Shown here: piece by piece, positions 16-61,103 of the stretch | How positions within the stretch are numbered: the first letter of the stretch is position 1 | Layout of the letters: each line of letters opens with the position of its first letter | Origin: a virus | Strand: one strand, 5' to 3' | DNA length: 64,000 nt | Virus record (IMG/VR): IMGVR_UViG_3300045988_091011 | Location: 50,138 to 114,137 of that record | Notes under the pieces: generated by a model | What the model was told of the DNA's origin: nothing | Seen by the model: only the letters and a program-made list of their open reading frames with translations | The model's database searches: none | Program-made: the position numbers and the translations under genes

Positions 16-3000
16 ATGGTTGATATGATGCCTATTTCGGAAATAGCCGAAGCTAATGGAATGTCTTTGGAAGAGGCAAAGAAATACAAGGATTCTATTA
101 TTGATAATTATAATAATCGTCTTTCTGATTTCAGATCTGCTCAAGGTTTTGCCGAAGATCTTATAGGTGATGACTCTAAGATCGAATTTAGAAAATACGT
201 GGCTCGTAATGCTTTTCTTGGTCTTCAATCGGAATCAAGAATGAAAGACATAGCTTCTGTCATAGAAACGCTTTCGGGGCAGCCTCGCGTGGCGGATGCG
301 CTAAGTACGTTTTCCCGGCTGTCGGGCAGGGCGAGGGAGCGGGCTATGGCTATTCGTGGCATACGGTCAAGGATAGAAGAGCTTGAATCCGAAATAGAAG
401 ATCTTGCTACTCGTCCTCGTAACGTAGATGGAAAAGACCCACAAGCTGAATCCATACAACGAAAAACCAAAGAATTGGAAGATCTTAGAACCAATTACAA
501 TAATTCGTTATCTGAGTTATCAACGTTAATAGGAAAAGAGTTTTCGATAGAAGAGTTGGTAAGTAAAACCGAATCTGTTTTATCATCTCCTCTTTCTCCC
601 ATAAGTTCACAAGATGTAATAGAGGCCTATGATACGCTTGTAGCTTTTGATGATTATTTCAATGTGAAATCAAGACAGGAAAAGAAGTTTACAGCCAAAG
701 ACAAAGCCATGAGATCCTTGGTAAATGAATACCGCAGGAGTTTGATGGACTATAGAAATATGAATAACTTCTTATCTAAGATGCTTGATAAAAGATTCTT
801 AGCTGAGGAAAACAGGGGATTTTCAAAAGCGCTGTCTTCTCTATGGTCTACTCCTTATAAGGGGGATGACAAGGTTCCTGATTTTGCAGAGCCTAATAAA
901 GTTGGTGAATATGACACTGATGAGGTAGTAGATCAAGCTGTGTCAGAAGGTAAGATTTCGGAAGACGAAGCTTGGACTATCAAGGCTTTTATGCATGCTC
1001 TTGATAGAGTAAGAGAAGATAGGATGAAGGAAGCGGAAGATAATATAAAAGAGTCTCCACTTACGGAATCTGTATCGGATGAAGATTATGAAGCTGCTAT
1101 GGATAATCCTATTACGGTCCCGGTCGTAAGGCAGTCTATAATTGATAAATTATATACAGGAAATACCGATCTTCTTACTGCAAGGGAAAAAGATGTGTAT
1201 GATAAATACAAACAAGATTTTGATGATTATGTATCGTCTTTAGGTGATAGTCCTGTTAATTTTATAAAATCATTATCTGAAAAGGCTGACAGGCTTACAA
1301 GTCCGAGATCAGTATATGAGGAAAATAAAGCTATTATTGATATGGCTAAGTCTAATTTGGAGCCAGATCAAAGAAAGGAGCTTGATGATGCTATTTCTTC
1401 GTATGTTGATATAATGAACAGGCGGGACAAAGGAGAGAAAGTTGACGAAGATAAACTTGCAGATTCGGTATTTACCATAGAAGATCTTGGCCAGGTTGGA
1501 AATATCACAGATCTCCTTCCTTATATTGAACAGAACAGGATTATTGATAAAGGTCGTATTTCTGAATCTACGTTAAGTAATTTCGGGGAGGATGATGCTA
1601 ATATAGATTCTCTTGTAAATGAATTAGACGAATCTGATAATACGCCTGGAGCCAATATAGATAGCGCCCAGAATCCAGAGACGTTGATGGTAAGAAGAAT
1701 CTCTAATGATGGCAATGAAAGGTATGAAATTGCGGGTCTTAGAGCCGATAAATTTATATCTTCTATAAAATCATTGGTTCCTATTCAAATAAGCTCTGAA
1801 ACGAACGCTAATGGCACTAAAAGGTATTCTCTTAACATAGGTGGGGAAACGGCTACTATAATTGAACTGCCTTATCATGCGAGATGGTCTATAGACAAAG
1901 AATCGGCTCGTGTTCTTAATCGCTACACAGACGTGTCTATTCAGGACGTGGGTAATTCCTATTCTTTGGTTTATAAGCGTCTTGATTCAGATGAATTGGT
2001 TCCGTACAGAACGGGTGTCGGATTCGGAGAGAATGAGGTAGATAAAATAGATCAGGAAGCATTATCTTCTTTGAAAAAAGGAGATAAGGTTAATCTCGAA
2101 ATAGATGTAAATGATACTTATAATCAGTCTCTTTTTGCCGAATACAATGATGCTGTTCAGTCCGGCGATAAAAAAAGAATAGAATCTGCTGAGAATAAAC
2201 TGGTGTCCAATATGGTTATCAAGGTCATGAGTGGGAACAGATTCGTTTCTGTTGTAAAAGCTGATACAGGAGGCATAGATGGTATAAGTAAAATAAGAAG
2301 AACGGCTTTTAACAAGTGGAAGAAGGACGCCGGCCGGTCGGCTACCATCGGCGTCGGCACGCATGTTGTTGCCCAGACCCTTCCCGGAAGACCGGTGTTT
2401 AACATGAAGGTGAACGGTCAAGGATATGGCCAGGTAGAAAATCTCCCCATTACCGAAAAAGGTGCTGAAAAAATATCTGATGTAGGATATGTATTAAATG
2501 GCAAAGTCGTGCTTAAGAACGGATCTAAATACACAGGCTTCCCATTTGCTTATTCTATATTAAATGACAAGGGGAATAATTACAAAAATGTAAGAGTTCC
2601 GGTAGTTGTCATCAAAGGTAAAAACGGTCTTAATTATCTTTTCCCAGTTAGCCTACGTTCTGTAGAATCAGAGGAAGGGCAGAAATGGATGTCTTTTATA
2701 GATATGCTGCTTGAATCTGGTGATTCTGAATTGCTACAGATGGGTCAAGATGATATACAAGATCTTAATGCGTATCTAACCAAGTTAGGCCTTGATCCGG
2801 CTTCGTATCAAGTATCGTATTTGAATCCTATTTCAGGGCTTAGAAAAGCTCGTGAGGCTATAGAGAAATTATCTACGGTTCCTGATGTTGTTAAGTGGGT
2901 AGAAGATGGAAGTAGGAGCGTGAAAGACATTGTGACGTCTGAAGTAGAATCTGGAATAGATTTCGAAGGTGAGATGTTTGTTGCTCCTAAGATCAGGATC

Positions 3001-4836
3001 CAGTTTGGTAAATCATCTTCCAGACCTAAGTCGCTTATAGAGGATGATCTTCCTTTCTCTGATGAGGGTAAGACCGTTACTTCTAAAGAATACGTGGAAG
3101 TTTACGAAGAGGAAATGCCAGAGGAAGGGGCTGTCCGGGAGACTCAGCCGGCGCCATTAGCTCAGCCGGCTCCTGCGGCACAAGCTGCGCAGTCTTTACC
3201 TGGCAAGAAGCGTACCTCCAGGAAAAACTTCTCTATCATGTTGAGTGAAATAGAATCTCATACAGAAAAAGAGGGATTGCCGCCTTATGCTAATATTTTT
3301 GATTTTATAGCAAGGAAGATTGTAGGAGGTGACTTGAGGTTTCTTCGTGAGAGAGGTAATCCTAAAAGTCTTAAGGAGGAAATGGGATTAGAACCTAAAG
3401 GAACAGTAGGGGATAAGATATCCACTCCTTCCAGTAAAGGTGGTAAGACCTTAGATGAATACGTTTCTTGGCTTCGTTCTCAAACAGATCAGGTGGTGGT
3501 TGATTATGTTGGGCCAAGATCTGACGAACAAATTATATCAGAGTTGAAAAACTTTTTGAAATATATTAATTTTGTTCCGAGCAAGGCTTTGAATTATTCT
3601 CTTAGAGTCAATGGCATGGATACCCTAAAAGAATATGGCACAAAAGAGGAAGTAGAAAAAATGGAATCTGATATCAATAGTTTGGTTTCTAAAGTTTTGC
3701 CTACGGTGGATAATAAAACTGTAGAAGATGTTTCTACTGCAATAAAATCAAACAACTTGCCTGCCATATGGAGGCCCGTGGAAAGCCTTGATATGACAAA
3801 CGAGGAAAAAATAGAGTTTTTGAATAACGTAGCAGATTTCCTTAGCGGCATACCAGAGTATGATGCTGTCGTGGAGTCTATAGAGTCAGAATCAGATAAT
3901 ATTTTAAATGATGGAAAAGAAGGAAGTGCAGAAGGCGGTGCAGTACGCACTGAGGAAGATGGCGATAAAAAGGGAGATGGAGAAGGCAAAGGACAATCCA
4001 GAACAAATGTCGAAGTTGAAAGAAATGTCGAATTACCTGGATCTCAAGAAGGAAGAGTAGATAACTATAGAAAGAACGGAGATAAGTTCTCTGACATTGC
4101 TGAAGTTACTTTATGGCTACTTAGAAGGGCTTCCGGCATAACCTCTATTCCGGAAGGAGAAGAGGTTTATGTAGAGGGAGATGAGGTTAATAGCATTATG
4201 ACCGATATGGAATCAAGGTATGGTATAGACACCATCAATCACTCGCATACGACTAAGGCTATAAGGGACCTTAACGGCGTATCAGGTTATAAAGTAGAAT
4301 ACGGCTTAACCTTTTTGACATACGATCCTTTTATTAGAATATCCAATCTAAGGAAAGGATCTAAGGCTGCGAAAGACGAACCTCGTATATCCGAAGAGCC
4401 GCTTACTCACATATCAAGGGTAACAACCCCTTATTTCCTGTACGGCGGTGATGAAGCATATACATCTGTTCCGGCTAAGGTAGAGCCTATACCGGAGAAG
4501 ATAATGGGTCGTAATGGTATTAAATTTGGTATGAGTGTAGTCGAGCTAACCAAATTAGGGTACAAAAAAGCTGGTGGAAACTGGATATATAAATTCTATA
4601 TGAACTCAGGTGTGTATGATTTGTATAATATCAGTACCGGTGAAGCGTTTAGGGCAAAACCGGATCTTGGAGTTAAGATAAGTTCCAGTGCATTCATCCG
4701 TTCTTTATCTCAATCTGGTAGAAAAATACAAAATATGATGAGTAACATGAGCCAGGAAGAGATAGATAGGAATAAGAATCTTGTAGAAGGTTCTGATAAT
4801 TCGGATTCGATAAATGAGTTAAACAAGGAGTGTTGA
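16..4836 (+). CDS. Very large hypothetical protein (>=1606 aa). The frame is open from window position 1, so the N-terminus probably lies upstream of the window. Contains an acidic PAPLAQPAPAAQAAQ linker.
   Basis: Uninterrupted 4.8-kb ORF with no stop between positions 1 and 16 in frame. Protein-like composition. No catalytic motif recognised. Confidence 0.8.
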   Translation: MVDMMPISEIAEANGMSLEEAKKYKDSIIDNYNNRLSDFRSAQGFAEDLIGDDSKIEFRKYVARNAFLGLQSESRMKDIASVIETLSGQPRVADALSTFSRLSGRARERAMAIRGIRSRIEELESEIEDLATRPRNVDGKDPQAESIQRKTKELEDLRTNYNNSLSELSTLIGKEFSIEELVSKTESVLSSPLSPISSQDVIEAYDTLVAFDDYFNVKSRQEKKFTAKDKAMRSLVNEYRRSLMDYRNMNNFLSKMLDKRFLAEENRGFSKALSSLWSTPYKGDDKVPDFAEPNKVGEYDTDEVVDQAVSEGKISEDEAWTIKAFMHALDRVREDRMKEAEDNIKESPLTESVSDEDYEAAMDNPITVPVVRQSIIDKLYTGNTDLLTAREKDVYDKYKQDFDDYVSSLGDSPVNFIKSLSEKADRLTSPRSVYEENKAIIDMAKSNLEPDQRKELDDAISSYVDIMNRRDKGEKVDEDKLADSVFTIEDLGQVGNITDLLPYIEQNRIIDKGRISESTLSNFGEDDANIDSLVNELDESDNTPGANIDSAQNPETLMVRRISNDGNERYEIAGLRADKFISSIKSLVPIQISSETNANGTKRYSLNIGGETATIIELPYHARWSIDKESARVLNRYTDVSIQDVGNSYSLVYKRLDSDELVPYRTGVGFGENEVDKIDQEALSSLKKGDKVNLEIDVNDTYNQSLFAEYNDAVQSGDKKRIESAENKLVSNMVIKVMSGNRFVSVVKADTGGIDGISKIRRTAFNKWKKDAGRSATIGVGTHVVAQTLPGRPVFNMKVNGQGYGQVENLPITEKGAEKISDVGYVLNGKVVLKNGSKYTGFPFAYSILNDKGNNYKNVRVPVVVIKGKNGLNYLFPVSLRSVESEEGQKWMSFIDMLLESGDSELLQMGQDDIQDLNAYLTKLGLDPASYQVSYLNPISGLRKAREAIEKLSTVPDVVKWVEDGSRSVKDIVTSEVESGIDFEGEMFVAPKIRIQFGKSSSRPKSLIEDDLPFSDEGKTVTSKEYVEVYEEEMPEEGAVRETQPAPLAQPAPAAQAAQSLPGKKRTSRKNFSIMLSEIESHTEKEGLPPYANIFDFIARKIVGGDLRFLRERGNPKSLKEEMGLEPKGTVGDKISTPSSKGGKTLDEYVSWLRSQTDQVVVDYVGPRSDEQIISELKNFLKYINFVPSKALNYSLRVNGMDTLKEYGTKEEVEKMESDINSLVSKVLPTVDNKTVEDVSTAIKSNNLPAIWRPVESLDMTNEEKIEFLNNVADFLSGIPEYDAVVESIESESDNILNDGKEGSAEGGAVRTEEDGDKKGDGEGKGQSRTNVEVERNVELPGSQEGRVDNYRKNGDKFSDIAEVTLWLLRRASGITSIPEGEEVYVEGDEVNSIMTDMESRYGIDTINHSHTTKAIRDLNGVSGYKVEYGLTFLTYDPFIRISNLRKGSKAAKDEPRISEEPLTHISRVTTPYFLYGGDEAYTSVPAKVEPIPEKIMGRNGIKFGMSVVELTKLGYKKAGGNWIYKFYMNSGVYDLYNISTGEAFRAKPDLGVKISSSAFIRSLSQSGRKIQNMMSNMSQEEIDRNKNLVEGSDNSDSINELNKEC

Positions 4837-4838
4837 GT

Positions 4839-5417
4839 ATGAGAAGGAGATACGAAGATATTTCAGGTCTTGTTCAGTACCAGTTGAAGACCAATCAGCA
4901 GGGGAATATAGAGGTTTATGTTGATGACAGGTTTGTTGGAAACGTAAGTGAAGGAGTCTGTAATTGGAAGGATATTGAATACAAGAGTAAGGTTACTATA
5001 TCTTTGAAAGGAGTCGAGGATAAGGCTAAAACTTCAAGTAAACGAGTCGGTCCCTATTGTCACATTAGTAGCATATTTGGAGGAAATGAATCTTATCATG
5101 CAGGTCCGGATAGTAATATAAAAAAGAGTCCGGTTACTACCTTTATAATGTATTGCTATAAAAATGGGGATATTACAACTACCACCACTTATACTAAAAA
5201 TTTATCTGGGATTCTTCAGATAGGTAAAACACAATTGACTATCAATTACAAACAAAGTAAAAGTCAGTCTTTTTCCGGTGGTTCTGGAGATTATGTAACA
5301 TCCGTATCTGATTTCCCTTTTGTTACTGGTCCAGGAAATGATAGCGTTGAGTTCGAAGGAGAGGGAAGATTAATAGTTGAGACAGAGGCTTCACATTATG
5401 AAATAGAAGTTTCATAA
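4839..5417 (+). CDS. Hypothetical protein (about 192 aa from ATG 4839; the track's 4830 start is a GTG).
   Basis: ORF with SD-like aaggag at 4825-4830, 8 nt upstream of ATG 4839. Follows the 1606-aa ORF stop at 4836. Confidence 0.65.
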   Translation: MRRRYEDISGLVQYQLKTNQQGNIEVYVDDRFVGNVSEGVCNWKDIEYKSKVTISLKGVEDKAKTSSKRVGPYCHISSIFGGNESYHAGPDSNIKKSPVTTFIMYCYKNGDITTTTTYTKNLSGILQIGKTQLTINYKQSKSQSFSGGSGDYVTSVSDFPFVTGPGNDSVEFEGEGRLIVETEASHYEIEVS

Positions 5418-5432
5418 TTTCTATTTTTATAA

Positions 5433-5440
5433 TATCTTTG
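5433..5440 (+). promoter_or_regulatory. Candidate Bacteroidetes-type -7 promoter element (TAtcTTTG).
   Basis: Matches TAnnTTTG. An ATG (5459) lies about 19 nt downstream. Confidence 0.3.
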
Positions 5441-5458
5441 TCTAAAATATTTATCGTT

Positions 5459-7714
5459 ATGGGATTAAAATGTCAGATAGAAAAGAAGGAAAATAAAATA
5501 GAACGGGTTGAGGCTCCTAACGGTGAGCCTTCCGTTCTTTACGAAAGTGCCTTAAAATTATTAGGAAACAGCGAGCGAGCTCTTCAAGTATGGGCTAAGG
5601 CTTACACCTCTGATTTTTTGTCGTATTATGGTCATTGGAATAACCCGGCTCCAGGGGGGATGTTTAATACCGATCCTAATGGCGAACCTCTTTTAGAAGA
5701 TGTGCTGTCGTATATGAAGCGTCAGGCTTATTTTTCCGATCCCTTAACGGCTCAGGATGTTAAGGATGTAAGAGATGTTATGATATCCAATTCCATATAT
5801 AGCATACGATCTCTTATTAATAGAGTTAGAAGCTCTTTTTATGTGGATGGTAATCTTATCCTAAATGAAGAAAATCTAAGGAGATCCGGCTTGTACAATG
5901 AGACAGAGATAAGTAGGATATTAGATAATCCTTCTGTACTTAATGAGGTCAGCTCTTTTATGAGGTTATTATTAGATTATTCCAATAACGAACACGATCT
6001 CGGGAAAGAGTCTTACTTCACGACCGTAGAAAAACCATACGGTCCTGTTGTGTATAAAAATGGCGTCTTCAATAAATTAGGAAAGAGAGCATCATACAAT
6101 CCGGCTGAAGTTTATGAGGCTATAAAAAATACAGTAGGAGGTATTAGTGTTGCTTCAGAGTTTGATTCTGCTTTCGGATCTTTATCTGATTCATATCCGG
6201 AGTTAGTTGAAAGATATCAGTCGGATAAGAGTTTTGCCTTGTCGCTGTTCAACGAATTTTCGAATATGAACATCGTTCCGGTTGTAACTTTAGAAGATAA
6301 TAATATCGTAGAAGGGAAAAGGCGGTCATTGTCAAAGTTGCAAGATTATGCTTATTACAGCCCTATTGGATCTGAGTCATTACGAGCCCGTATATCAGCC
6401 TTTCTAAACAGGGTTAATGCTGATACAGAAGAAGACCTTAGAAGTATGATATGGGACGTAGAAGAGGCTTGTATAGGTCTTGGTATAGATATCGTAGGCG
6501 TGTCTAAGGCGTATGACGGAACAGAAGAATCGCTGAATAAAATTGATAGCTTGATGTTGGATCTTGATATTTATGTAGCAAGGCACAACGATGACACTTA
6601 TGCTCCTACCTTAGCTTCTGCTATCGATGACGTTCTTGGAGATAGCCATGATCGTCGTGTCATGTTTCTGCCAGAGTATATGGATAATATGAATATCGTT
6701 TATATGGAATCTGACATAGATCCAGTATCGGCATTTGAAAATCATTCCCTGCTTTATCTTGGTGGAAACCTATATCATAAGGTAGAAAGAGATAATTTAA
6801 GTGATTTGTACGATATGGCTGCCGAGCTTGCCAAGCAGAGTCTAACTTATTTCCCGCCTGGTATCTATCCTGAATATTGTTTTAAGGATGGTGTTTTAGA
6901 TAAGCTCCTCGTGAAAAACGTAGATAGTAAGGTCCTTGCTGATTCTATTAAAAAATACGTCCTGTCTTATACCGATTCTCAGAATACGGAAGAGATGAAT
7001 GCTACCAGATTGGCATTCGGTCATCTTGTTGTTCCCGGAAGCCCGTATGTTAATGAAGAACGGGAGTTTAGCCGATACATAAACAGAAAGCAGGACAAAG
7101 AGAATCCTTTACTCTTATTCGATTTATACCAATCTTATCTTGAAAATAAGCTTCATAATACGGAAGTGTACGAAGGGGCATACAAGTATCTTGACTTTAA
7201 ACCAGATCATTTACTGGGTCTTACCATTTCAGATCCGGATACGTTAAAACAAATTGAACTATCTTTGGCAGGTAATGATCGTGAACAGTTATTTGAGTAT
7301 AGCATGAGCAGTACCGATCCTTCTTTTACAGATCTGTTCTATTTGGATTATTATGATATGTTATATGCCGGTTCTGATTTCTATCACGATCTTTTTACAA
7401 AACATCCTAATCTCTTAAATGAGGTTCGGGATCATAACATAACTAATCAGGATGATAATGTTATCGTAGAAGGGTTGTATGATAATTTTATCAGAATAGG
7501 AAACACGGTGTTCACTAAAGTCGGCGAAAGTAGTTCCGGCTCTATCTACCAAAATCTAACAGGAACCGAATCGGAGGTGAAATACGATTCTACCCAAAAG
7601 GTAAAGGCAGTAGAAACCGATTATGCTCCATACCAAAACAGATCTGGCTTGACGCAAGACATGACCGTAAGCAAGTCTGAATTAGGTGATCTTAATAAAT
7701 TGGAATGCAGGTAA
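5459..7714 (+). CDS. Large hypothetical protein (about 751 aa; the track start 5438 is a TTG, and ATG 5459 is the more likely start).
   Basis: Long ORF followed by a clean hairpin terminator. Confidence 0.75.
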   Translation: MGLKCQIEKKENKIERVEAPNGEPSVLYESALKLLGNSERALQVWAKAYTSDFLSYYGHWNNPAPGGMFNTDPNGEPLLEDVLSYMKRQAYFSDPLTAQDVKDVRDVMISNSIYSIRSLINRVRSSFYVDGNLILNEENLRRSGLYNETEISRILDNPSVLNEVSSFMRLLLDYSNNEHDLGKESYFTTVEKPYGPVVYKNGVFNKLGKRASYNPAEVYEAIKNTVGGISVASEFDSAFGSLSDSYPELVERYQSDKSFALSLFNEFSNMNIVPVVTLEDNNIVEGKRRSLSKLQDYAYYSPIGSESLRARISAFLNRVNADTEEDLRSMIWDVEEACIGLGIDIVGVSKAYDGTEESLNKIDSLMLDLDIYVARHNDDTYAPTLASAIDDVLGDSHDRRVMFLPEYMDNMNIVYMESDIDPVSAFENHSLLYLGGNLYHKVERDNLSDLYDMAAELAKQSLTYFPPGIYPEYCFKDGVLDKLLVKNVDSKVLADSIKKYVLSYTDSQNTEEMNATRLAFGHLVVPGSPYVNEEREFSRYINRKQDKENPLLLFDLYQSYLENKLHNTEVYEGAYKYLDFKPDHLLGLTISDPDTLKQIELSLAGNDREQLFEYSMSSTDPSFTDLFYLDYYDMLYAGSDFYHDLFTKHPNLLNEVRDHNITNQDDNVIVEGLYDNFIRIGNTVFTKVGESSSGSIYQNLTGTESEVKYDSTQKVKAVETDYAPYQNRSGLTQDMTVSKSELGDLNKLECR

Positions 7715-7760
7715 TTTTTGTATACATATAATATAGTTTTTTCATAATTACAATTTGGAA

Positions 7761-7791
7761 AGTGAGGCTTGTGAAAGTCTCACTTTTCTCA
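7761..7791 (+). terminator. Rho-independent terminator (AGTGAG-loop-CTCACT followed by TTTTCTC).
   Basis: 6-bp perfect stem, 12-nt loop and T-run read directly, 47 nt after the stop at 7714. Confidence 0.6.
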
Positions 7792-8208
7792 TATATGCAC
7801 GTATATCAACAACATACAAGAAAAGTTAGATTTTCATTGCTTATGGATTATTTTTATTAAGTTTGCGATATTAGTTTCAGGAAGGGATTATAGAAAATAG
7901 GGAAAAGTAAGAACCGAACGTAACTAATAACAGTAGGAAATGAGAATCAGTACCATCAAACGTAACAACAGCATTCATCTTATGTATAAAAACATTATGA
8001 ATGATTTAGGTCAATTAAGAACTGTAGTTTCAAAATCCTATATTTATAATCTGATACAAAATCAAACCGGATTAAGTATCAGAACTATATCCCATGTCTT
8101 GAATCACACAAAAGAACAGGATACAGATTCTTTGTGAAAACCATACATTTTCATACATTTGTGTGTTCTTTAGTTTTTAGATTTAAGTTTTTCATGGTAT
8201 TAGTTTAG

Positions 8209-8243
8209 AGATCAGGGCTCGCAGTGATGCGGGCTCTGGTTTG
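8209..8243 (+). repeat. Left subterminal hairpin repeat of the TnpB element.
   Basis: 35-bp sequence that recurs at 9609-9643 with about 5 mismatches. Internal palindrome cagggc...gctctg. Confidence 0.65.
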
Positions 8244-8378
8244 TTTTAAGAAGTATTAAAATATTTGCTATTTAAGATCCTGTTCCTATTTTTGTTCCAG
8301 AAACAATGAACGACGAGATGGTGTAATATTTTGCTCATCTTATTAAAAATGATTATATTCATATCATAAATCATTCAA

Positions 8379-9566
8379 ATGAGATTAGTTGAAAGACATA
8401 TAGTTAAAGACAACCGTTTTGAGGATATTTGCCTCAAATCAGGTTTGTTGTACAATTATGTTCTTTACAATATCCGTCAAGAAATATTTTCTGGTAACTA
8501 TTTAAAGGAATTTGATTTATCAAACAAACTTTGCAAAGAAAACCAATTCGATTTCAGGAATTTGCCTAATCATGTTTCACAGCAGGTGATTAAACAGGTA
8601 TTTAAAAATATAAAATCCTGGATGAGATTAAAGAAAGATTTTGAAAAGAATCCTTCAAAATATGGTAATCATCGTCCTCATCTACCTTCATACAAACGAG
8701 GTAAGAAACAAAACATGGTTGTTTTTACTAACTGTGATTGCAGGATAAAAGATGATAATCATATTCATTTTGTTAAAAACGTGATCGAATCAATCAAAAC
8801 AAATGTAAAGAAAGATGAATTAAAACAAGTTAGAATCATACCTCAAGCTACCTGTTATGTAGTAGAGGTAGTTTATGAAAGAAAGGAAGCTGATCTTGGT
8901 TTAGATAAAGACAATTTTCTTTCGATTGATTTAGGATTGAATAATTTATGTTCATGTATTAGTAATGTAGTTAATTCTTTCATTATAAACGGACGGGTTA
9001 TGAAATCAGTAAATCAGTGGTACAATAAGAAGAAAGCTAAGTTGATGTCTTTTATTGGTAATAAGGGAACTTCGAATAGGATAAGAAGAATTACTTTGTT
9101 TAGAAATTGTTGGATAGAAGACAAGTTGCATAAGATCGGTAGATATATTGTCAACTTCTGTAGATCAAACAATATAGGAACAATCATCATCGGATTAAAC
9201 AAAGAATGGAAAAACGAGATAAATATTGGTAAAAGGAATAACCAACATTTTGTTTCTATTCCTCATTCTAAGTTAATAGATAAGATTGTTTACAAAGCAA
9301 AGTTATTAGGAATTAATGTTGTTATACATGAAGAATCTTATACATCAAAGATTGATCATCTTGCTTTTGAGCCTCTAAAGAAACAAGAATCCTACTTAGG
9401 TAGAAGGAAGAAACGTGGATTGTTCCAAAGTTCTATTGGAAAGTTGATAAATGCAGATATCAATGGAGCTATAGGAATAGCAAGAAAAGTAGTCGGTGAT
9501 TCTTTCATTGGAAAGATAATCGATAGTGGGTTCGTGTTTAATCCAGTTAGATTAAATATTTTGTAA
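8379..9566 (+). CDS. tnpB: TnpB-like RuvC nuclease (OMEGA effector), 395 aa, lacking the usual CxxC...CxxC zinc finger.
   Basis: RuvC-I LSIDLGLNNL, RuvC-II VVIHEESYTSKID and RuvC-III INADINGAIGIARK read in the translation. No Cys occurs between RuvC-II and RuvC-III. Flanked by the IS hairpin repeats. Confidence 0.75.
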   Translation: MRLVERHIVKDNRFEDICLKSGLLYNYVLYNIRQEIFSGNYLKEFDLSNKLCKENQFDFRNLPNHVSQQVIKQVFKNIKSWMRLKKDFEKNPSKYGNHRPHLPSYKRGKKQNMVVFTNCDCRIKDDNHIHFVKNVIESIKTNVKKDELKQVRIIPQATCYVVEVVYERKEADLGLDKDNFLSIDLGLNNLCSCISNVVNSFIINGRVMKSVNQWYNKKKAKLMSFIGNKGTSNRIRRITLFRNCWIEDKLHKIGRYIVNFCRSNNIGTIIIGLNKEWKNEINIGKRNNQHFVSIPHSKLIDKIVYKAKLLGINVVIHEESYTSKIDHLAFEPLKKQESYLGRRKKRGLFQSSIGKLINADINGAIGIARKVVGDSFIGKIIDSGFVFNPVRLNIL

Positions 9567-9608
9567 TACAAGATTGAATCTAATGAATAATTTTAATAAC
9601 ATTAGTGT

Positions 9609-9643
9609 AGATCAGGGATAGCAGTGATGCGGGCCCTGGTTTG
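9609..9643 (+). repeat. Right subterminal hairpin repeat of the TnpB element (CAGGG-16nt-CCCTG).
   Basis: Copy of the 8209-8243 repeat, 43 nt downstream of the tnpB stop. Confidence 0.65.
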
Positions 9644-9804
9644 ATTTACAGCGCTTTACCCAAAATGGGAAAAGCGTAAGTTATTGATTGTCAAGTTTTC
9701 CCCTTAAATGGGGAAAATTACTCATTGTGTATTATTTTTCTGTCTTTTCTGAAAATACTTCTCTTCTATAGGAAATAAACACACCCATATTCCACCCTGC
9801 AATC

Positions 9805-10869
9805 ATGATCTTTGTTACGTGCTTCATGCACGTATGTTTAACAATTAAATACTATAAAATTATGGGTGGTGATAAAATCGTCCTTTTAGATGGAGCCGGG
9901 GCTAACGGTGGTGGTGCAGCCACTAACGGTCTTCTTTCAATGATTCCCGGCATGTTTGCTAATTTGATAGGTGGTAATAAAATGGATCCGAATCTGGTGG
10001 CGGCTTTGATGAACGGTCGTAACAACCAGGACGGTTTCGGTGGGGCTAACGGTTGGTGGCTCTGGATAATTGTTTTGTTCTGGCTGTGGGGTGGACGCGG
10101 CTTCGGTAACGGTTTTGGAAATGGCGGTGATTGTTGCGCCAATGGTTTGCCGGCTCAGTTGAATAACGATTACGGTCGTGAACTTTTGATGCAGGCAATT
10201 CAAGGTAATCGTAGCGCCATAGATCAGATTGCTTCTGCTTTGAACTGTTCTACTACTCAACTTCAGAACGCTATCTGCAACGTACAGGGTGCTATTGATA
10301 AAGTAGCTGGTCAGGTAGGTATGACTTCTCAGGCTGTTATCAACGCAGTTCAACAACAAGGTTGTGAAATAGGAAATCAAATCAGCTCTTGCTGCTGCAA
10401 TCTGAGTTCGTTGATCAATCAAAGCACTTGCCAGACTCAGGGAATGATTACTCAGCAAGGTTTTGATAACCAGCTTCGCACGTTGGAACAAACCAATATC
10501 TTGCAGAACGGTCTCAACCAAGGTCTGGCTAACAATCGTGAGCAAGCTACAAGCCAATTCAATATCTTGTCTGCGAAACTTGACGCCCAAACCGTTATGA
10601 TCAACGACAAATTCTGTCAGTTGGAAATGAGGGAGATGCAGAACACTATTGCTCAACTTCGTGAAGAAAAAGCGGCTTTGACAGCTTCGGCATTATCTCA
10701 GCAACAAACCCAGAATATCGTTGGTCAATTACGCCCGACGGCCGTCCCGGCCTACCCCTCTTGTTCTCCTTACCAGGCTTATACTTGGGGACAGGTATTC
10801 GGAGGAGGTTGCTGCAATAACGGATGCGGATGTAACAACGGATGTTGCAATAACAACGCTGCTGTCTGA
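9805..10869 (+). CDS. Gly/Asn/Gln-rich protein with Cys doublets and one Trp-rich TM helix (alternative start ATG 9862). C-terminus GGGCCNNGCGCNNGCCNNNAAV.
   Basis: ORF. TM segment GWWLWIIVLFWLWGG. Internal CC/CCC motifs. Long Q/N-rich coiled region. Confidence 0.65.
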   Translation: MIFVTCFMHVCLTIKYYKIMGGDKIVLLDGAGANGGGAATNGLLSMIPGMFANLIGGNKMDPNLVAALMNGRNNQDGFGGANGWWLWIIVLFWLWGGRGFGNGFGNGGDCCANGLPAQLNNDYGRELLMQAIQGNRSAIDQIASALNCSTTQLQNAICNVQGAIDKVAGQVGMTSQAVINAVQQQGCEIGNQISSCCCNLSSLINQSTCQTQGMITQQGFDNQLRTLEQTNILQNGLNQGLANNREQATSQFNILSAKLDAQTVMINDKFCQLEMREMQNTIAQLREEKAALTASALSQQQTQNIVGQLRPTAVPAYPSCSPYQAYTWGQVFGGGCCNNGCGCNNGCCNNNAAV

Positions 10870-30415: not shown

Positions 30416-31435
30416 TCATCGCTTTATCTTTTTAGACGGATCCCAATCCGAAGAGAAAGGGCATTCGTTTTTGTTATGTAATCCAAAGTCACAATAATAA
30501 CACAGTGCCGACGGGCAGGGTAGCTTGTTTTGCGGAACAGGCTGGCTTAGAGTGGCACGCCGCTTGCTATACCTGGCTCCTTCTACTCCCTGGATGTATG
30601 CCTGAAATGTTTTTACACTATTATCTTCAAAATCATACATTTTGGATAAAGTGTTATTTAGCATCTCTATAGATTTTGTTTTACGATCTTCATCTACTTT
30701 AACCTTTTGGTACTGCCTGGTCCTGGTAAAGAAATAGATGTTCATATCTGGTAGAACTCCACCATATTTTCTATAGATGTAAAATGAATATATAGGATGC
30801 TGTAAATTTGTCTCCAGTTTCTTAGAATCAAAAACCTTATTCCCTGATTTCCAATCTATGACATAATGGTGAACTACGTTCTTGCTCTTTATAGCCAGAT
30901 GAAGGTCTACCGATCCTACTATGTACACATGAGTATGAATTACTCCATTTATGTTAACAGGCTTAGGAAGACGGTACGGCAGCACAAAATCTTCTTCGAC
31001 TCCAACTATAGCGCCGTGTCTGATAAGTTTCTCGCAGGGATTAAGATCACTATCAGCTATCATAAACCTATTGCCGTCTTTTTTGAACAGATCCACAATC
31101 CAAGCAAGAAGCTCCCCAGATTGCTTCATGGCTATCATCATATTTTCCGGTGATTGCCAAGGTATGTCTTCTTGGTAAGCATAGTAACTTATAGCTTCCC
31201 CCAGGTCTTTGCCAGAAGGCTGTCTTCCGTTCTTAAAGAAGTATTCCAGTGTCTTATGGATAACCGTACCATAAGACGTAGCTTCTTGTTTTTCCGTAGA
31301 CCTTTTGCCCTCCACGTAAGTCTTATACCATTTCATTGGACAAGTAAGAAACGTATCTATCTGGGAATAAGATATGGCAAGACGTTTCACGCCATTAAAC
31401 TCCTTATATAGCAAATGCGTTTCCGGGACCATCAT
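30416..31435 (-). CDS. Cas4/RecB-like PD-(D/E)XK exonuclease with a C-terminal Cys cluster.
   Basis: YSQIDTFLTCP N-terminal motif, VGSVDLHL, VIDWKSG (the D/E-x-K motif), and a four-Cys cluster CPSALCYYC...NECPF. Confidence 0.7.
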   Translation of the reverse strand: MMVPETHLLYKEFNGVKRLAISYSQIDTFLTCPMKWYKTYVEGKRSTEKQEATSYGTVIHKTLEYFFKNGRQPSGKDLGEAISYYAYQEDIPWQSPENMMIAMKQSGELLAWIVDLFKKDGNRFMIADSDLNPCEKLIRHGAIVGVEEDFVLPYRLPKPVNINGVIHTHVYIVGSVDLHLAIKSKNVVHHYVIDWKSGNKVFDSKKLETNLQHPIYSFYIYRKYGGVLPDMNIYFFTRTRQYQKVKVDEDRKTKSIEMLNNTLSKMYDFEDNSVKTFQAYIQGVEGARYSKRRATLSQPVPQNKLPCPSALCYYCDFGLHNKNECPFSSDWDPSKKIKR

Positions 31436-31779: not shown

Positions 31780-31902
31780 ATCCCATATTCTATTAAATAT
31801 ATTTAAAGCTATTCGTATGTTTTAATACATCCCCTCGGAGACCTTTCGGTCTCCTTGGTAGATGTAAATCCCGTTAGGGATAAGTCAGGATTTCTCCTGT
31901 AA

Positions 31903-32090
31903 GTACCCATCGCCAATGTTATTTGAGGTTTTGAATAAGCAACACTGTTCCTGAATACCAGAACTGTTTAATCACTTACCTTAGAGCTACAGACTTGGGC
32001 AAACATCCGTAGGTAACTATCTATTCTTAAATAACGTAGCCTTTGTTTCAAGGCTTAGGCTAATAACCCGATCTCTTAAAGAGATGTATT
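31903..32090 (-). ncRNA. Partner-less second copy of the IscB-associated omegaRNA-like scaffold (about 164-nt conserved core plus a divergent terminal hairpin).
   Basis: About 93% identical to 43678-43843. The stem AGCCTT/AAGGCT here is replaced by AGTGTT/AACACT in the other copy, a compensatory change. Lies in a 520-bp non-coding gap. Strand inferred from iscB orientation. Confidence 0.35.
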
Positions 32091-32302
32091 AAACTTTTAT
32101 AATAGAATTATATTGGTTTAATACTATTTGGGGTTATAACACTGATCATAATGATTGGTCAGTTCTTCTGGTTCTAAATCTTGTCCAAAATCCATGTTAA
32201 AAATATCGTAATTAGTAAAGCACTGTTCCTGCCGGCAGGAAATCTATGAATGCTGCTTTTGCTTCTTCAATTAGGCCCAAGTGTAACCTTGGGCCATTGT
32301 AT

Positions 32303-42396: not shown

Positions 42397-43623
42397 TCAA
42401 TCCATTTCCTTTTGTACCATAAAGCGTTTACACCTTGATAATTTCAATTTCTTGTATGTAATATCTCTTTGGTTTTTACCATCAATATCTCGAATATTAA
42501 AACTACCGGTTTTACGCCTTGCGAATATAAAATAATAACTGTTTTCAAACATAACCCTATCAAACAATCGGAAACCAAAAACTTCAAAAGGAGATTGATT
42601 TGGTCTTTTTATCCCTCCTTTTGGAATCTTTTGTTTATGGATCTGACGATTATGTCTTCTTACTAATCTTACTTTATAATAATATCCTAACCTTATAGCA
42701 TCAAAGTTTTTAGAAATAACAAATGCATCGAAAACATGAGATTTTTCAATACCATGTTTAATCCTATTGTATTTTGTAACATAACCGAAAGTCATAGAAA
42801 CTCTGTTGTATTTAGACCTTAGTTCTTCATACAATCTCCATTTCATTATTCCCATTACGGCTGCGTCGCGAAGCGACGATCCCCGTTTGATCTTTAAATC
42901 TATATTACCTTTATGGTATTCTTTATGACAAGTTTCACATAAGGTAATAAGATTAGATGGGGAATCTCCACCTGTCTTTCGTGATTCAATATGATGAACA
43001 TTCAATACTGGGTCTTTTGACTTTCCCTTACAATGCTGGCATTTATGTCCATCTCTTGCTAAAACATATTCCCTAACGTTCCAAAATCCAAGTTGATCAC
43101 CCTCCTGATATTCTTTACCTGATATATTAGGATTGTTAATCTTTTGAGTATCAAATTGAGCTACTTCGATAACAATACGAGATATTGGTAATATAGAACA
43201 TACATTGTCAATAACACGAATATGGGCGTCTACTTTGTATTTCACCGAAGGTGCTACCCATCCCGGACGCTTACTTTTTATTCTATTATCAAAACGAGGT
43301 TTTCTATATCTCAATCTATTTCGTCTTGTTTTCCGTAGCTCCCTTCTGGTAGACAAAAGATCTACGATATCATTTCTAAGAATAACTTCACTGCTGTAAA
43401 GTTCTTTGCTTTTCGTCGTTGCTGATAGACCAACGTGTTTAGTTCCAGCATCAACGCCTAACACAATTTCTTGTTTGTAATCAGATGTTACGTACGTTAA
43501 TTTGATGGTAAACGGACATAGGTTTACAACGACTGCCTTTTTGTCTTTAAGCAATCGCCTAACCTTTCCATGCCTTGTTGTAGGCATCAAAGGTTTACCA
43601 TTTATGTCTTGTACGTACACCAT
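42397..43623 (-). CDS. iscB: IscB OMEGA nuclease (PLMP, split RuvC and HNH domains), 408 aa, catalytic motifs intact.
   Basis: PLMP motif GKPLMPTTRHGKVRRLL. RuvC-I VLGVDAGTKHVGLS. Arg-rich bridge helix RRELRKTRRNRLRYRKPRF. RuvC-II IVIEVAQFD. HNH CQHCKGK...NVHHIESRKTGGDSPSNLITLCETCH. RuvC-III HVFDAFVISKNF. Confidence 0.85.
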   Translation of the reverse strand: MVYVQDINGKPLMPTTRHGKVRRLLKDKKAVVVNLCPFTIKLTYVTSDYKQEIVLGVDAGTKHVGLSATTKSKELYSSEVILRNDIVDLLSTRRELRKTRRNRLRYRKPRFDNRIKSKRPGWVAPSVKYKVDAHIRVIDNVCSILPISRIVIEVAQFDTQKINNPNISGKEYQEGDQLGFWNVREYVLARDGHKCQHCKGKSKDPVLNVHHIESRKTGGDSPSNLITLCETCHKEYHKGNIDLKIKRGSSLRDAAVMGIMKWRLYEELRSKYNRVSMTFGYVTKYNRIKHGIEKSHVFDAFVISKNFDAIRLGYYYKVRLVRRHNRQIHKQKIPKGGIKRPNQSPFEVFGFRLFDRVMFENSYYFIFARRKTGSFNIRDIDGKNQRDITYKKLKLSRCKRFMVQKEMD

Positions 43624-43639
43624 ATCTACAAACGTTTTT

Positions 43640-43880
43640 AATGTTTATTCAACATAAGTCAGAGTGAAACTCTGTTAGTACCCATCGCCAATGTTATTTA
43701 AGGTTTTTTTTGTAAGCAACACTGTTCCTGAATACCAGAACTGTTTAATCACTTACCTTAGAGCTACGAACTTGGGCAAACATCCGTAGGTAACTATCTA
43801 TTCTTAAATAACGTAGTGTTTGTTTCAACACTTAGGCTAATAATCGGAATAGCTTTTGGCTATTATGCATAATACAATAC
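43640..43880 (-). ncRNA. Candidate omegaRNA (HEARO-like) scaffold of the IscB.
   Basis: Located 5' of iscB on the same strand. Its 166-nt core 43678-43843 is conserved at a second locus, with compensatory stem changes. Multiple hairpins. Confidence 0.45.
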
Positions 43881-49606: not shown

Positions 49607-50268
49607 CCTCCAGTAGTGTACAAAGATACATCTTCCTCCTCTACGTTTACACCTTTAATAGCCTGTAGAAGTTTTTTCTTTGTCTCCCGGCACATATTGT
49701 AACCATATCCTTTATACCGATATGAGCGCTCCCATGTGCTTACTGGAAAAGGAATATTTTCATCAATGACCAGCCTCTTCATATGAAGATGTTCAAAGAA
49801 TTTCTCATGGTAGAGTAGTTTGTACTCGTATGCTACTATACTTGCAGATGAGAATGGAAAATAATCATCTTCCTCTTCTTCGTATTTAGGCTCCTTGTAG
49901 TAAGCCATTTTTGCCACAGTAAAGTCGAAGCTCCTGAGAATCTCTTCAGGCTTTCCGAACTCTGACTCTATGAACTCTACCCATACCTTTTCTCCCTCTT
50001 TCTGGAATGCGCATACCTTCTCATTCCTGTACTTAAATTTCCATCCTTCTTTCTGATGTTTTTTATCATTGAACAAATCAACAGCTTCCTGAAAATCGTC
50101 TTCGCTTTCAAAGAAAATATCAATATCTTTTACTCTTTCTCCGGAAAGGATATTCTTAAAACATCCACCAGCTATGAACCCCTTGTGACCTTCCATATAT
50201 TTGTCAAGCCATCTTATTTGCCAGAAATTATCTGGAGTATCTATTATAAAATTGTTCATATCATTCAT
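49597..50268 (-). CDS. Pol-beta-superfamily nucleotidyltransferase-like protein, 223 aa.
   Basis: GGCFKNILSGERVKDIDIFF fits the hG[GS]x9-13DhD pattern. A downstream acidic FDFT follows. Confidence 0.5.
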   Translation of the reverse strand: MNDMNNFIIDTPDNFWQIRWLDKYMEGHKGFIAGGCFKNILSGERVKDIDIFFESEDDFQEAVDLFNDKKHQKEGWKFKYRNEKVCAFQKEGEKVWVEFIESEFGKPEEILRSFDFTVAKMAYYKEPKYEEEEDDYFPFSSASIVAYEYKLLYHEKFFEHLHMKRLVIDENIPFPVSTWERSYRYKGYGYNMCRETKKKLLQAIKGVNVEEEDVSLYTTGGWD

Positions 50269-60788: not shown

Positions 60789-61103
60789 TTACACTAAACG
60801 TATGTTATAAAACATACGGATGTTATTTAATTTCATATTTTTCTTTTCTAACTTTGTTTCACTCAATCGAATCACATAGTCCCTCGTTTCGGACAAGACG
60901 GTTGGGTAAAAGAGGTCTTTGATATAAGGTTTTACCCTAAAAATATTCGTTGGGTAAGTAAAATCAAAAACGTTTCGTTTAGTAAAAGAATCCGGCGATC
61001 TCACTTTTGAGCAACCGGTAGAGGGTATTGGTGATACCCAGTATGAAGTTTCGTACAAATGTATATCATTTTTCATCTTTGATGTAAAATGGTGTATAAT
61101 CAC
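60789..61103 (-). CDS. Hypothetical protein, 104 aa.
   Basis: Co-oriented ORF. Confidence 0.5.
   Translation of the reverse strand: MIIHHFTSKMKNDIHLYETSYWVSPIPSTGCSKVRSPDSFTKRNVFDFTYPTNIFRVKPYIKDLFYPTVLSETRDYVIRLSETKLEKKNMKLNNIRMFYNIRLV

Follow-up and report, generated by a model that had tools for sequence, protein, structure and literature searches.

When a tnpB gene in a phage genome lies between two strongly folding repeats, the question arises as to whether those repeats are the ends of a transposon or simply part of the phage. The locus that raises this question lies in a window of 64,000 nucleotides, the whole stretch of DNA analyzed here, which corresponds to positions 50,138 to 114,137 of the IMG/VR virus record IMGVR_UViG_3300045988_091011. 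The initial annotation had described there a TnpB-only IS605-like element with a zinc-finger-less nuclease, bracketed by hairpin repeats that a Y1 transposase would recognize as its left and right ends. That annotation was right about a TnpB-only element with a zinc-finger-less nuclease, but wrong about where the ends lie, which sequence forms the RNA, and the IS605/Y1 mechanism. In our reading, to which we give a probability of roughly 80%, window positions 8320-9602 are a tnpB-only, non-autonomous IS607-like derivative in an epsilon crAss-like gut phage, and the hairpin repeats lie outside it. The deposited phage closest to the window is crAssE-Sib (OR575929), which has been described as an epsilon crAss-like phage (PMC11054128). 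The parts of the locus that bear on the element itself are as follows.

8320-9602, plus strand: the probable mobile element, a tnpB-only IS607-like derivative of 1283 bp, delimited by homology limits across contexts and by an empty site.
8320-8378, plus strand: its left end, 59 nt, with a promoter-like TTTG at 8330-8333, a 20-nt spacer, and TATATTCA at 8354-8361.
8379-9566, plus strand: tnpB, 395 aa, with RuvC residues D184, E319, and D360, the RuvC-III motif NADIN, and a TNB domain without cysteines.
About 9422-9602, plus strand: the predicted omegaRNA scaffold, from RNAalifold and covariance, best supported over 9490-9602.
9603-9622, plus strand: the predicted guide, TAGTGTAGATCAGGGATAGC, the first 20 nt of the right flank, overlapping the 5' arm of the right hairpin repeat (R_R).

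The limits of the element come from a comparison of populations. A total of 156 relatives of the TnpB were found in IMG/VR, and 80 loci at 71-94% amino-acid identity were kept; these phage copies occupy at least 12 unrelated flank contexts. In all of them, nucleotide homology to the window begins at about 8317-8320, directly after flanking DNA that ends in [G/T]AT, and ends at 9602, where every copy reads ...TTTTAATAAC[A/G]T. Both copies of the hairpin repeat are therefore outside the element. An empty site in related phages, which had been suggested as a check, was indeed found. In two close relatives of the window phage (loci L005 and L058), the element sits instead at 8182|8183 (tttttagAT|ttaagttttt), a site that is uninterrupted in the window, in crAssE-Sib, and in more than 100 other loci. 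It thus provides a precise empty site, with no target duplication beyond the shared AT. A second empty site, sought for the commonest insertion (L006 type), gave no matches. As AT is present at both junctions, the ends may equally be placed at 8318-9600. The element has a G+C content of 0.29, compared with 0.35-0.46 around it, and its left end can be aligned to those of 11 further copies with tnpB alone. The first three nucleotides of the left end vary (GGT, GAT, or AGT) among otherwise near-identical left ends. Several phage contigs hold two diverged tnpB copies; within the 64-kb window, neither a second tnpB nor a serine recombinase gene was found. In the assembly collection, 43 index blocks list a TnpB protein identical to that of the window; 24 contigs encoding it were read.

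If the ends are at 8320 and 9602, the hairpin repeats require another explanation, for which the surrounding phage DNA has to be considered.

7940-8137, plus strand: a 65-aa phage open reading frame (ORF) upstream of the left hairpin, part of the backbone and conserved in crAssE-Sib and IMG/VR relatives.
8209-8248, plus strand: the left repeat (R_L), a native phage hairpin followed by UUUGUUUU, the 'short' allele, outside the element and present as a single copy at this position in IMG/VR loci.
8249-8319, plus strand: segment B, phage intergenic DNA also present in L001 and 81 IMG/VR loci, ending in GAT at 8317-8319.
9609-9648, plus strand: R_R, the second hairpin copy, outside the element, of 'long' allele origin with the preceding TAGTGT(AG) kept.
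9649-9736, plus strand: segment C, phage intergenic DNA with hairpins at 9651-9677 and 9694-9719, the natural continuation in antirepressor-less relatives.
9805-10869, plus strand: gene D, 354 aa, phage backbone, about 98% identical to crAssE-Sib.

The repeat bracketing the gene, first reported as 35 bp long, is present and extends over 40 nt (8209-8248 and 9609-9648), with 36 of 40 positions identical and a spacing of 1400. There are only two copies in the window, and none arose in 100 shuffles. Both copies fold strongly, R_L at -23.8 kcal/mol (z -6.4) and R_R at -18.2 kcal/mol (z -4.1), the latter stem being weakened by two private A substitutions in its 5' arm (9618 and 9620). These two substitutions occur together in none of 119 IMG/VR hairpins, yet in all eight loci with the window arrangement. 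What does not stand is the role of the repeats as the left and right ends of an IS200/IS605 element spanning about 8209-9643, mobilized by a Y1 TnpA in trans, with 9651-9719 as its omegaRNA. Such an element would account for strongly folding repeats on both sides of the gene, and its insertion after a short AT-containing motif without target duplication does resemble IS605. However, we consider it extremely improbable in view of how the hairpin is distributed. A pattern search located the hairpin in at least 119 IMG/VR contigs, of which 115 could be typed, in one copy each, and only two of the 119 loci have the element nearby; the repeats are thus not tied to the tnpB ORF. The 12 or more other contexts, on the other hand, share only 8320-9602 with the window and lack such a hairpin. 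The true left end, 8320-8378, contains no significant hairpin either (-3.8 kcal/mol, z 0.11), and no recurrent Y1 ORF stands beside 68 bacterial and archaeal relatives. In crAssE-Sib, a single hairpin copy is followed by the same 71-nt segment B and then by an antirepressor gene, with Bro-N and ANT domains, in place of tnpB. The two hairpins at 9651-9719 are also present and fold together at -28.5 kcal/mol (z -5.2), but they are not omegaRNA: the order hairpin, segment C, gene D occurs in 33 IMG/VR loci without the element at that site.

The variation among these relatives is of two kinds. Upstream, the hairpin is preceded by a 'long' form (attagtttag-attagtgtag-atcaggg) or by a 'short' form (attagtttagagatcaggg), the latter in 36 of the 119 loci. 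Downstream, it is followed either by B and the antirepressor gene or by C running directly into gene D. The 115 typed loci comprise 65 long+B (and two more with the element upstream), 22 short+C, 14 short+B, and 11 long+C haplotypes. We also considered whether the 8-nt difference between R_L and crAssE-Sib could be a private scar of TnpB, but rejected this idea because the short and long forms are common alleles in phages without the element at this site. The 40-nt repeats are a native terminator-like hairpin of the epsilon crAss-like phage family, and not a part of the element. Judging from its stem and the adjoining UUUGUUUU, the hairpin looks like the terminator of the upstream 65-aa ORF, which has no Pfam match, although a terminator scan did not include the hairpin in its list despite the stem and U-tract. 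It could also be the 3' end of a small phage RNA. The left hairpin gives a sub-threshold Rfam match to FopS (8185-8250, plus strand, 27 bits against a gathering score of 56, E 0.28), which probably reflects a shared terminator shape or chance. Segment B contains TTTG at 8264-8267, a 19-nt spacer, and TATTTTTG at 8287-8294, and may therefore carry a Bacteroidetes-type promoter at 8264-8294; the Bacteroides promoter consensus is the established basis for such a reading. The GAT at 8317-8319 is the left-flank motif and a candidate target-adjacent motif (TAM). The 1400-bp spacing is purely arithmetic and has no functional meaning, as it is the sum of 111 nt of left repeat and segment B, 1283 nt of element, and 6 nt (TAGTGT).

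The presence of two hairpin copies in the window can be understood from the same alleles. The window reads short hairpin and B, then the element, then TAGTGTAG, hairpin, C, and D. The right junction is the product expected from insertion at tttagAT|TAGTGTAGATCAGGG of the long allele, and the left junction is that expected from insertion at ...cgacgagAT| after B. As the left repeat and B best match short+B loci (96.7%) and the right repeat and C best match C-type loci (about 97%), a short+B allele appears to have been joined via the element to the tail of a long+C allele, hence the two copies. The simplest and, we infer, likeliest origin is that genomes with the element at these two sites recombined at it or through it. 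Comparison of flank identities by haplotype singled out no parental lineage. Both junctions and both hairpin copies are identical in eight contigs from eight samples, so the arrangement is not an assembly artefact. The B|element junction occurs in one IMG/VR contig only, L202 (IMGVR_UViG_3300045988_107203). That contig jumps from inside tnpB (window 9025) to window 12151, which would be either a 3.1-kb deletion or a chimeric assembly. A further contig, L286 (logan:SRR30169308_152, positions 3713-3740), has an otherwise identical arrangement, but at the element|hairpin junction 10 nt (TAGTGTAGAT) are missing; the element of this contig thus abuts the second GAT site (...taGAT|CAGGG), and its predicted guide differs.

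The product of tnpB has the features of an RNA-guided nuclease. The 395-aa ORF matches the NCBIfam profile guided_TnpB (NF040570; 144.9 bits, cut-off 100), Pfam OrfB_IS605 (PF01385; 62.3 bits, cut-off 30.5), and Cas12f1-like_TNB (PF07282; 32.3 bits, cut-off 26.3), the last over residues 296-367 with the whole model covered. The RuvC triad is intact and in canonical order, as had been noted: D184 (IDLG), E319 (HEESYTSK, the invariant residue being the second E), and D360 (NADING) are invariant across a 56-sequence alignment with relatives down to 35% identity. In an AlphaFold2 model (overall predicted local distance difference test score, pLDDT, 91.3), the best fold matches from Foldseek are AsCas12f (E 1e-17), ISFba1 TnpB, ISDra2 TnpB, and Fanzor2. 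For sequence comparison with PDB entries we used profile searches, as phmmer with the single protein was too insensitive.

The absence of a zinc finger, also part of the initial annotation, was confirmed. The protein has nine cysteines (residues 18, 52, 119, 121, 159, 191, 193, 244, and 261), none of which lies between RuvC-II and RuvC-III (residues 319-360), and the C4 finger is thus not present; in the profile alignment, the finger cysteines of AsCas12f face non-cysteine residues of the TnpB clade. Residues 321-360 are nevertheless modelled as short beta-strands with pLDDT values of 88-94. However, this state is not special to the phage-borne copy. Among 125 full-length representatives of 50%-identity clusters, the stretch from the RuvC-II glutamate to the RuvC-III aspartate contains no cysteine in 31, one in 75, two in 18, and three in one, that is, 0-1 cysteines in 106 of 125, and none of them has a CxxC...CxxC arrangement there. 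The loss is real, clade-wide, and previously reported, since a lost or mutated zinc finger has been described for large TnpB branches (Altae-Tran et al. 2023, PMC10691335). By its NADIN motif, the protein falls in the 'derived' NADXN clade of the same study. The ORF is intact in 80 of 82 phage copies, and, measured against the window copy, phage copies have a ratio of nonsynonymous to synonymous substitution rates (dN/dS) of 0.03-0.15; purifying selection acts on the gene. Together with the invariant triad and the many insertion contexts, this argues for a mobile nuclease rather than a domesticated repressor, and the element, whose gene is intact, is predicted to make a functional TnpB RNA-guided nuclease.

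A guide RNA for this nuclease had been expected within 9400-9720. A scaffold is indeed predicted there, at about 9422-9602, although, as noted above, the hairpins at 9651-9719 are phage DNA. Applied to an alignment of 23 distinct phage copies over their final 240 nt, RNAalifold gives 38 pairs in seven helices over 9422-9584: 9422-9426/9474-9478, 9430-9434/9465-9469, 9493-9497/9519-9523, 9501-9506/9511-9516, 9527-9532/9540-9545, 9546-9551/9579-9584, and 9560-9564/9568-9572. In these copies, 97.4% of the cells pair, compared with 34-50% when partners are slid, covariation is 0.284 compared with 0.055-0.086, and compensatory changes are seen in six pairs. The frequent G-U pairs suggest that the sense strand is the one that folds. 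With a covariance model built on the last 122 nt of the element, this module was also recovered, on the sense strand, in 34 of 80 bacterial and archaeal relatives, where it likewise lies at the tnpB 3' end; among them are Hallella, Kapaibacterium, cyanobacteria, Thermoanaerobacter, Helicobacter, and Asgard archaea. In the bacterial and archaeal alignment, 92.6% of the cells pair (33-49% when slid), covariation is 0.558 (at most 0.108 when slid), and 26 of 28 pairs have compensatory changes; this alignment was fitted to the model and so favors the structure, which counts against our reading, though the margin is still large. The covariation marks the module as a predicted omegaRNA scaffold that overlaps the 3' end and stop codon of the ORF and ends at the element boundary. 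In Rfam, at E<=10, window positions 7500-10500 matched no TnpB omegaRNA family and no RAGATH-18. Since conservation among all copies stops exactly at 9602, the guide is predicted to be 9603-9622, a role assigned by analogy with how TnpB works. This sequence has no second match within the window; in relatives, the 'long' allele contains TAGTGTAGATCAGGG directly after GAT. Elsewhere in the window, the omegaRNA model weakly matches 60989-61079 (plus strand; 25.7 bits, E 0.036), probably by chance, and no TnpB-like ORF is close to this match.

To which transposon family, then, does the element belong? That it is a TnpB-only mobile element in a phage was borne out, but its assignment as IS605-like was not. 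A genome scan with a 10-sequence alignment recovered at least 579 relatives at 35-49% identity from many phyla. Of the bacterial and archaeal loci, 68 had enough upstream sequence, and in 23 of these a co-oriented ORF of about 200 aa with Resolvase and HTH_17 domains lies just upstream of tnpB; no other recurrent neighbor family, including a Y1-like one, was found beside the 68. One phage locus, L061, carries a 194-aa Resolvase and helix-turn-helix (HTH) tnpA (2417-3001) that overlaps tnpB (3001-4185), the TnpB being about 77% identical to that of the window. Upstream of this tnpA, a stretch of approximately 60 nt can be aligned to the left ends of the copies that have only tnpB, that of the window among them. 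Locus L002 retains a 20-aa tnpA remnant. On these grounds, and with no Y1 partner found, the lineage is taken to be IS607-type and the window copy to be tnpA-deleted. The L061 contig (IMGVR_UViG_3300045988_093114) as such holds a full-length IS607-like element at 2351-4236 with left and right ends of the window type, and a second, tnpB-only copy 1.6 kb downstream (5848-7035).

The alternative is that a Y1 (HUH) transposase mobilizes the element as an IS1341-type member of IS200/IS605, the serine recombinase of the relatives being irrelevant to the phage subclade. The AT-type ends and targets ([G/T]AT | ... AAC[A/G]T), which are not the canonical GG of IS607 (PMC13565253), would suit such a transposase, TnpB clades have repeatedly swapped Y1 and serine partners (PMC10691335), and there is a hairpin (9546-9584) some 18 nt short of the right end. 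It is also true that insertion takes place on the 3' side of a short motif, without target duplication, but that trait is common to IS200/IS605 and IS607. The right-end hairpin is part of the covarying omegaRNA, and the left end has none (z 0.11), so that subterminal hairpins are not found at both ends. No Y1/HUH TnpA lies upstream of the 80 phage copies, no Y1-like ORF family accompanies the relatives, and a crude regular-expression test found no Y1 motif in the window. In addition, the serine recombinase gene of L061 overlaps a closely related tnpB behind a left end that aligns with that of the window, and L002 keeps a trace of the same gene. A Y1 TnpA acting in trans is therefore unlikely.

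Several observations nevertheless weigh against an IS607-like assignment and the insertion history given here. GG is the usual end or target of IS607 elements (PMC13565253, PMC10711439), and the non-GG ends and targets of this element depart from the IS607 canon in one defining respect. Its ends are AAC[A/G]T after [G/T]AT in 12 contexts; in distant relatives the end is ...TAGTAACTAT (...TAACTAT). In the window subfamily, AT is found at both junctions and once in the empty site (flank-AT|element...AAC-AT|flank), which fits the crossover dinucleotide of a serine recombinase. However, in the ...AACGT subfamily the left junction shows AT and the right one GT plus an invariant G, so that no single dinucleotide fits both, and the notion of one crossover dinucleotide for all junctions was abandoned. 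No tnpA was found in the window by tblastn with serine recombinases, and mobilization in trans therefore has to be assumed. The TAM, the guide length, and the 5' end of the omegaRNA are predictions from sequence comparison. Finally, the element|hairpin junction in a plain long allele had no matches in IMG/VR and the JGI metagenomes, and the element|antirepressor junction had none in IMG/VR. With regard to the ...AACGT right ends (L029, L032, L050, L053, L060, L061b, L062, L064, L065, L070, L073, and L082), all independent contexts have G as the first flanking base, whereas this base varies in the ...AACAT subfamily of the window.

The element can be placed more precisely by comparison with known systems. 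As in the IS607 family (IS607, ISXfa1), the tnpA of the relatives encodes HTH and Resolvase domains and is co-oriented with, overlaps, and lies upstream of tnpB; terminal inverted repeats and target duplication are both absent, and the guide RNA is at the right end. In contrast to that family, the window copy has lost tnpA and ends in ...AACAT after [G/T]AT, rather than GG (PMC13565253, PMC10711439). The RAGATH-18-associated TnpB of ISFba1 (PDB 8IAZ; PMC11061315) is similar in size (387 aa compared with 395), in its IS607 context, in its abundance in the human gut, and in fold (Foldseek E 8.7e-14), although the sequence similarity is marginal (profile E 9e-4). However, RAGATH-18, typical of the IS607 TnpBs named after it, has no match here at E<=10, the scaffold overlaps the 3' end of the ORF whereas that of ISFba1 is wholly downstream, and the flank is [G/T]AT where ISFba1 has the TAM AGGAG.

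The TAM of ISDra2 is TTGAT, and the present element is likewise inserted after a short motif ending in GAT. It further resembles IS1341-type elements in having tnpB as its sole gene, and ISDra2 in an omegaRNA that overlaps the 3' end of the ORF, a guide taken from the right flank, and a matching RuvC fold (8H1J, 8EXA). It differs from both in that the partner of its relatives is a serine recombinase and not Y1, there is no left-end hairpin, RuvC-III reads NADxN and not DRDxN, and the C4 zinc finger is missing. The closest solved natural proteins, by both profile and fold, are 'derived' NADXN TnpB/Cas12f proteins such as AsCas12f (PDB 8J12), with which the window TnpB shares NADIN and the beta-structure of the TNB domain (pLDDT about 88-94). 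Unlike the window TnpB, in which every finger cysteine is replaced, Cas12f keeps CxxC...CxxC and is CRISPR-associated. TnpB branches that have lost the finger offer a parallel, the C4 finger being absent across a large branch (PMC10691335), but D360 is intact here, unlike in RIIIr-4, where the RuvC-III aspartate has become histidine. TldR proteins are also phage-borne TnpB homologues with a guide RNA; however, they are nuclease-dead repressors, whereas this protein has an intact catalytic triad and many insertion contexts.

What would such an element do in its phage? In the mechanism we propose, tnpB and the 3' region would be transcribed from the left-end promoter and/or a phage promoter in segment B. 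The transcript would be processed to an omegaRNA whose scaffold ends at 9602 and whose guide is the adjoining flank, TAGTGTAGATCAGGG... The ribonucleoprotein would then cut that sequence next to [G/T]AT, i.e., element-free alleles, and homologous repair would copy the element back in. New insertions would need a serine recombinase TnpA supplied in trans from full-length copies, one of which occurs in a related phage (L061), and excision of 8320-9602 would leave the predicted circle junction ...AAC-AT-GGTGTAAT. More tentatively, and with a probability that we put well below even, the left repeat, segment B, and the element (8209-9602) may together constitute an RNA-guided homing cassette among co-infecting epsilon crAss-like phages, in a serine-recombinase clade with AT-type ends. 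Of the 115 related loci, 78 carry a long allele that the guide, with its GAT, matches at 18 of 20 positions, the mismatches lying far from the TAM; the left repeat of the window is a short allele, from which the T of GAT and the target's first 7 nt are missing. This phage would thus escape cutting by its own TnpB, whereas many siblings could be cut. The left repeat-B-element unit is 100% identical in eight loci, although the upstream 758-aa gene is 68-78% identical in seven of the eight; the eight loci were chosen for an identical protein, and that gene is hypervariable in this phage group. If homing does occur, a rival that is cut and then repaired with this genome as template would acquire the entire 1.4-kb left repeat-B-element unit, and this would explain the duplicated hairpin and the identity of the unit beside divergent neighboring genes. 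Non-restorative homing into co-infecting phages has been discussed already (PMC13565253).

A stronger version of this proposal is that the phage has co-opted TnpB to cut or exclude co-infecting siblings with the long allele, the upkeep of the transposon being secondary. The presence of TAGTGTAGATCAGGG beside GAT in the long alleles, the lack of a target in the window's own left copy, and the 100% identity in eight samples of a unit that extends through the right repeat and C, next to a gene that differs by 22-32% in seven of them, could all be read in this way. However, any TnpB guide matches the empty allele by construction and is hence no evidence of co-option, and an element family found in at least 12 other sites is mobile rather than fixed. 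The choice of loci with identical protein also biases the identity, and the upstream gene is hypervariable anyway (77.5% to crAssE-Sib). Co-option, a conjecture drawn from sequence comparison, is therefore quite unlikely, and we retain the view of the element as a mobile, IS607-like derivative.

Other features of the window and its relatives deserve mention. The 758-aa gene (5438-7714, plus strand), 77.5% identical to its crAssE-Sib counterpart, is 68-78% identical in seven of eight phages whose next 2.4 kb is 97-100% identical, which suggests that it is mosaic or diversifying and possibly related to host range. The product of gene D is rich in Gly and Asn, with a Cys-rich C-terminus (...GGGCCNNGCGCNNGCCNNN) and no Pfam match, and the crAssE-Sib annotation names it 'spike protein/glycoprotein'. 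Three related loci (L285, L287, and L288, about 5015-5750, minus strand) have, right after gene D, a NUMOD4/HNH_3 homing-endonuclease-like gene that is not in the window. On the minus strand of the window, 42397-43866 is a complete IscB element, in which a HEARO RNA (RF02033, 113 bits; 43674-43866) lies directly upstream of a 408-aa ORF (42397-43623) with RRXRR and HNH domains; the same phage thus has both TnpB-type and IscB-type RNA-guided nucleases. A second HEARO RNA (31899-32137, minus strand, 111 bits) has no IscB ORF downstream, the next ORF (30416-31435) being a PD-(D/E)XK nuclease, and is an orphan or decayed omegaRNA.

Nothing here is conceptually new: earlier publications describe TnpB genes in relatives of crAssE-Sib, branches of TnpB without the zinc finger, and TnpB-driven homing. 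The value of the result is chiefly corrective: repeats that bracket a transposase-like gene need not be its ends, and comparison across populations shifted the proposed ends inward by about 100 bp on the left and about 40 bp on the right. Newly defined are the exact ends of the subfamily, a candidate [G/T]AT TAM, an omegaRNA module supported by covariation, and a full-length parent with a serine recombinase. As a compact, 395-aa, zinc-independent TnpB with a defined scaffold, the protein may be a candidate genome editor. If the homing-cassette reading is true, a serine-recombinase-associated TnpB clade would work with AT-type rather than GG-type ends. The outcome is a very abundant tnpB-only family in human-gut epsilon crAss-like phages, with 156 copies in IMG/VR, and an omegaRNA module that has been kept from phages to cyanobacteria and Asgard archaea.

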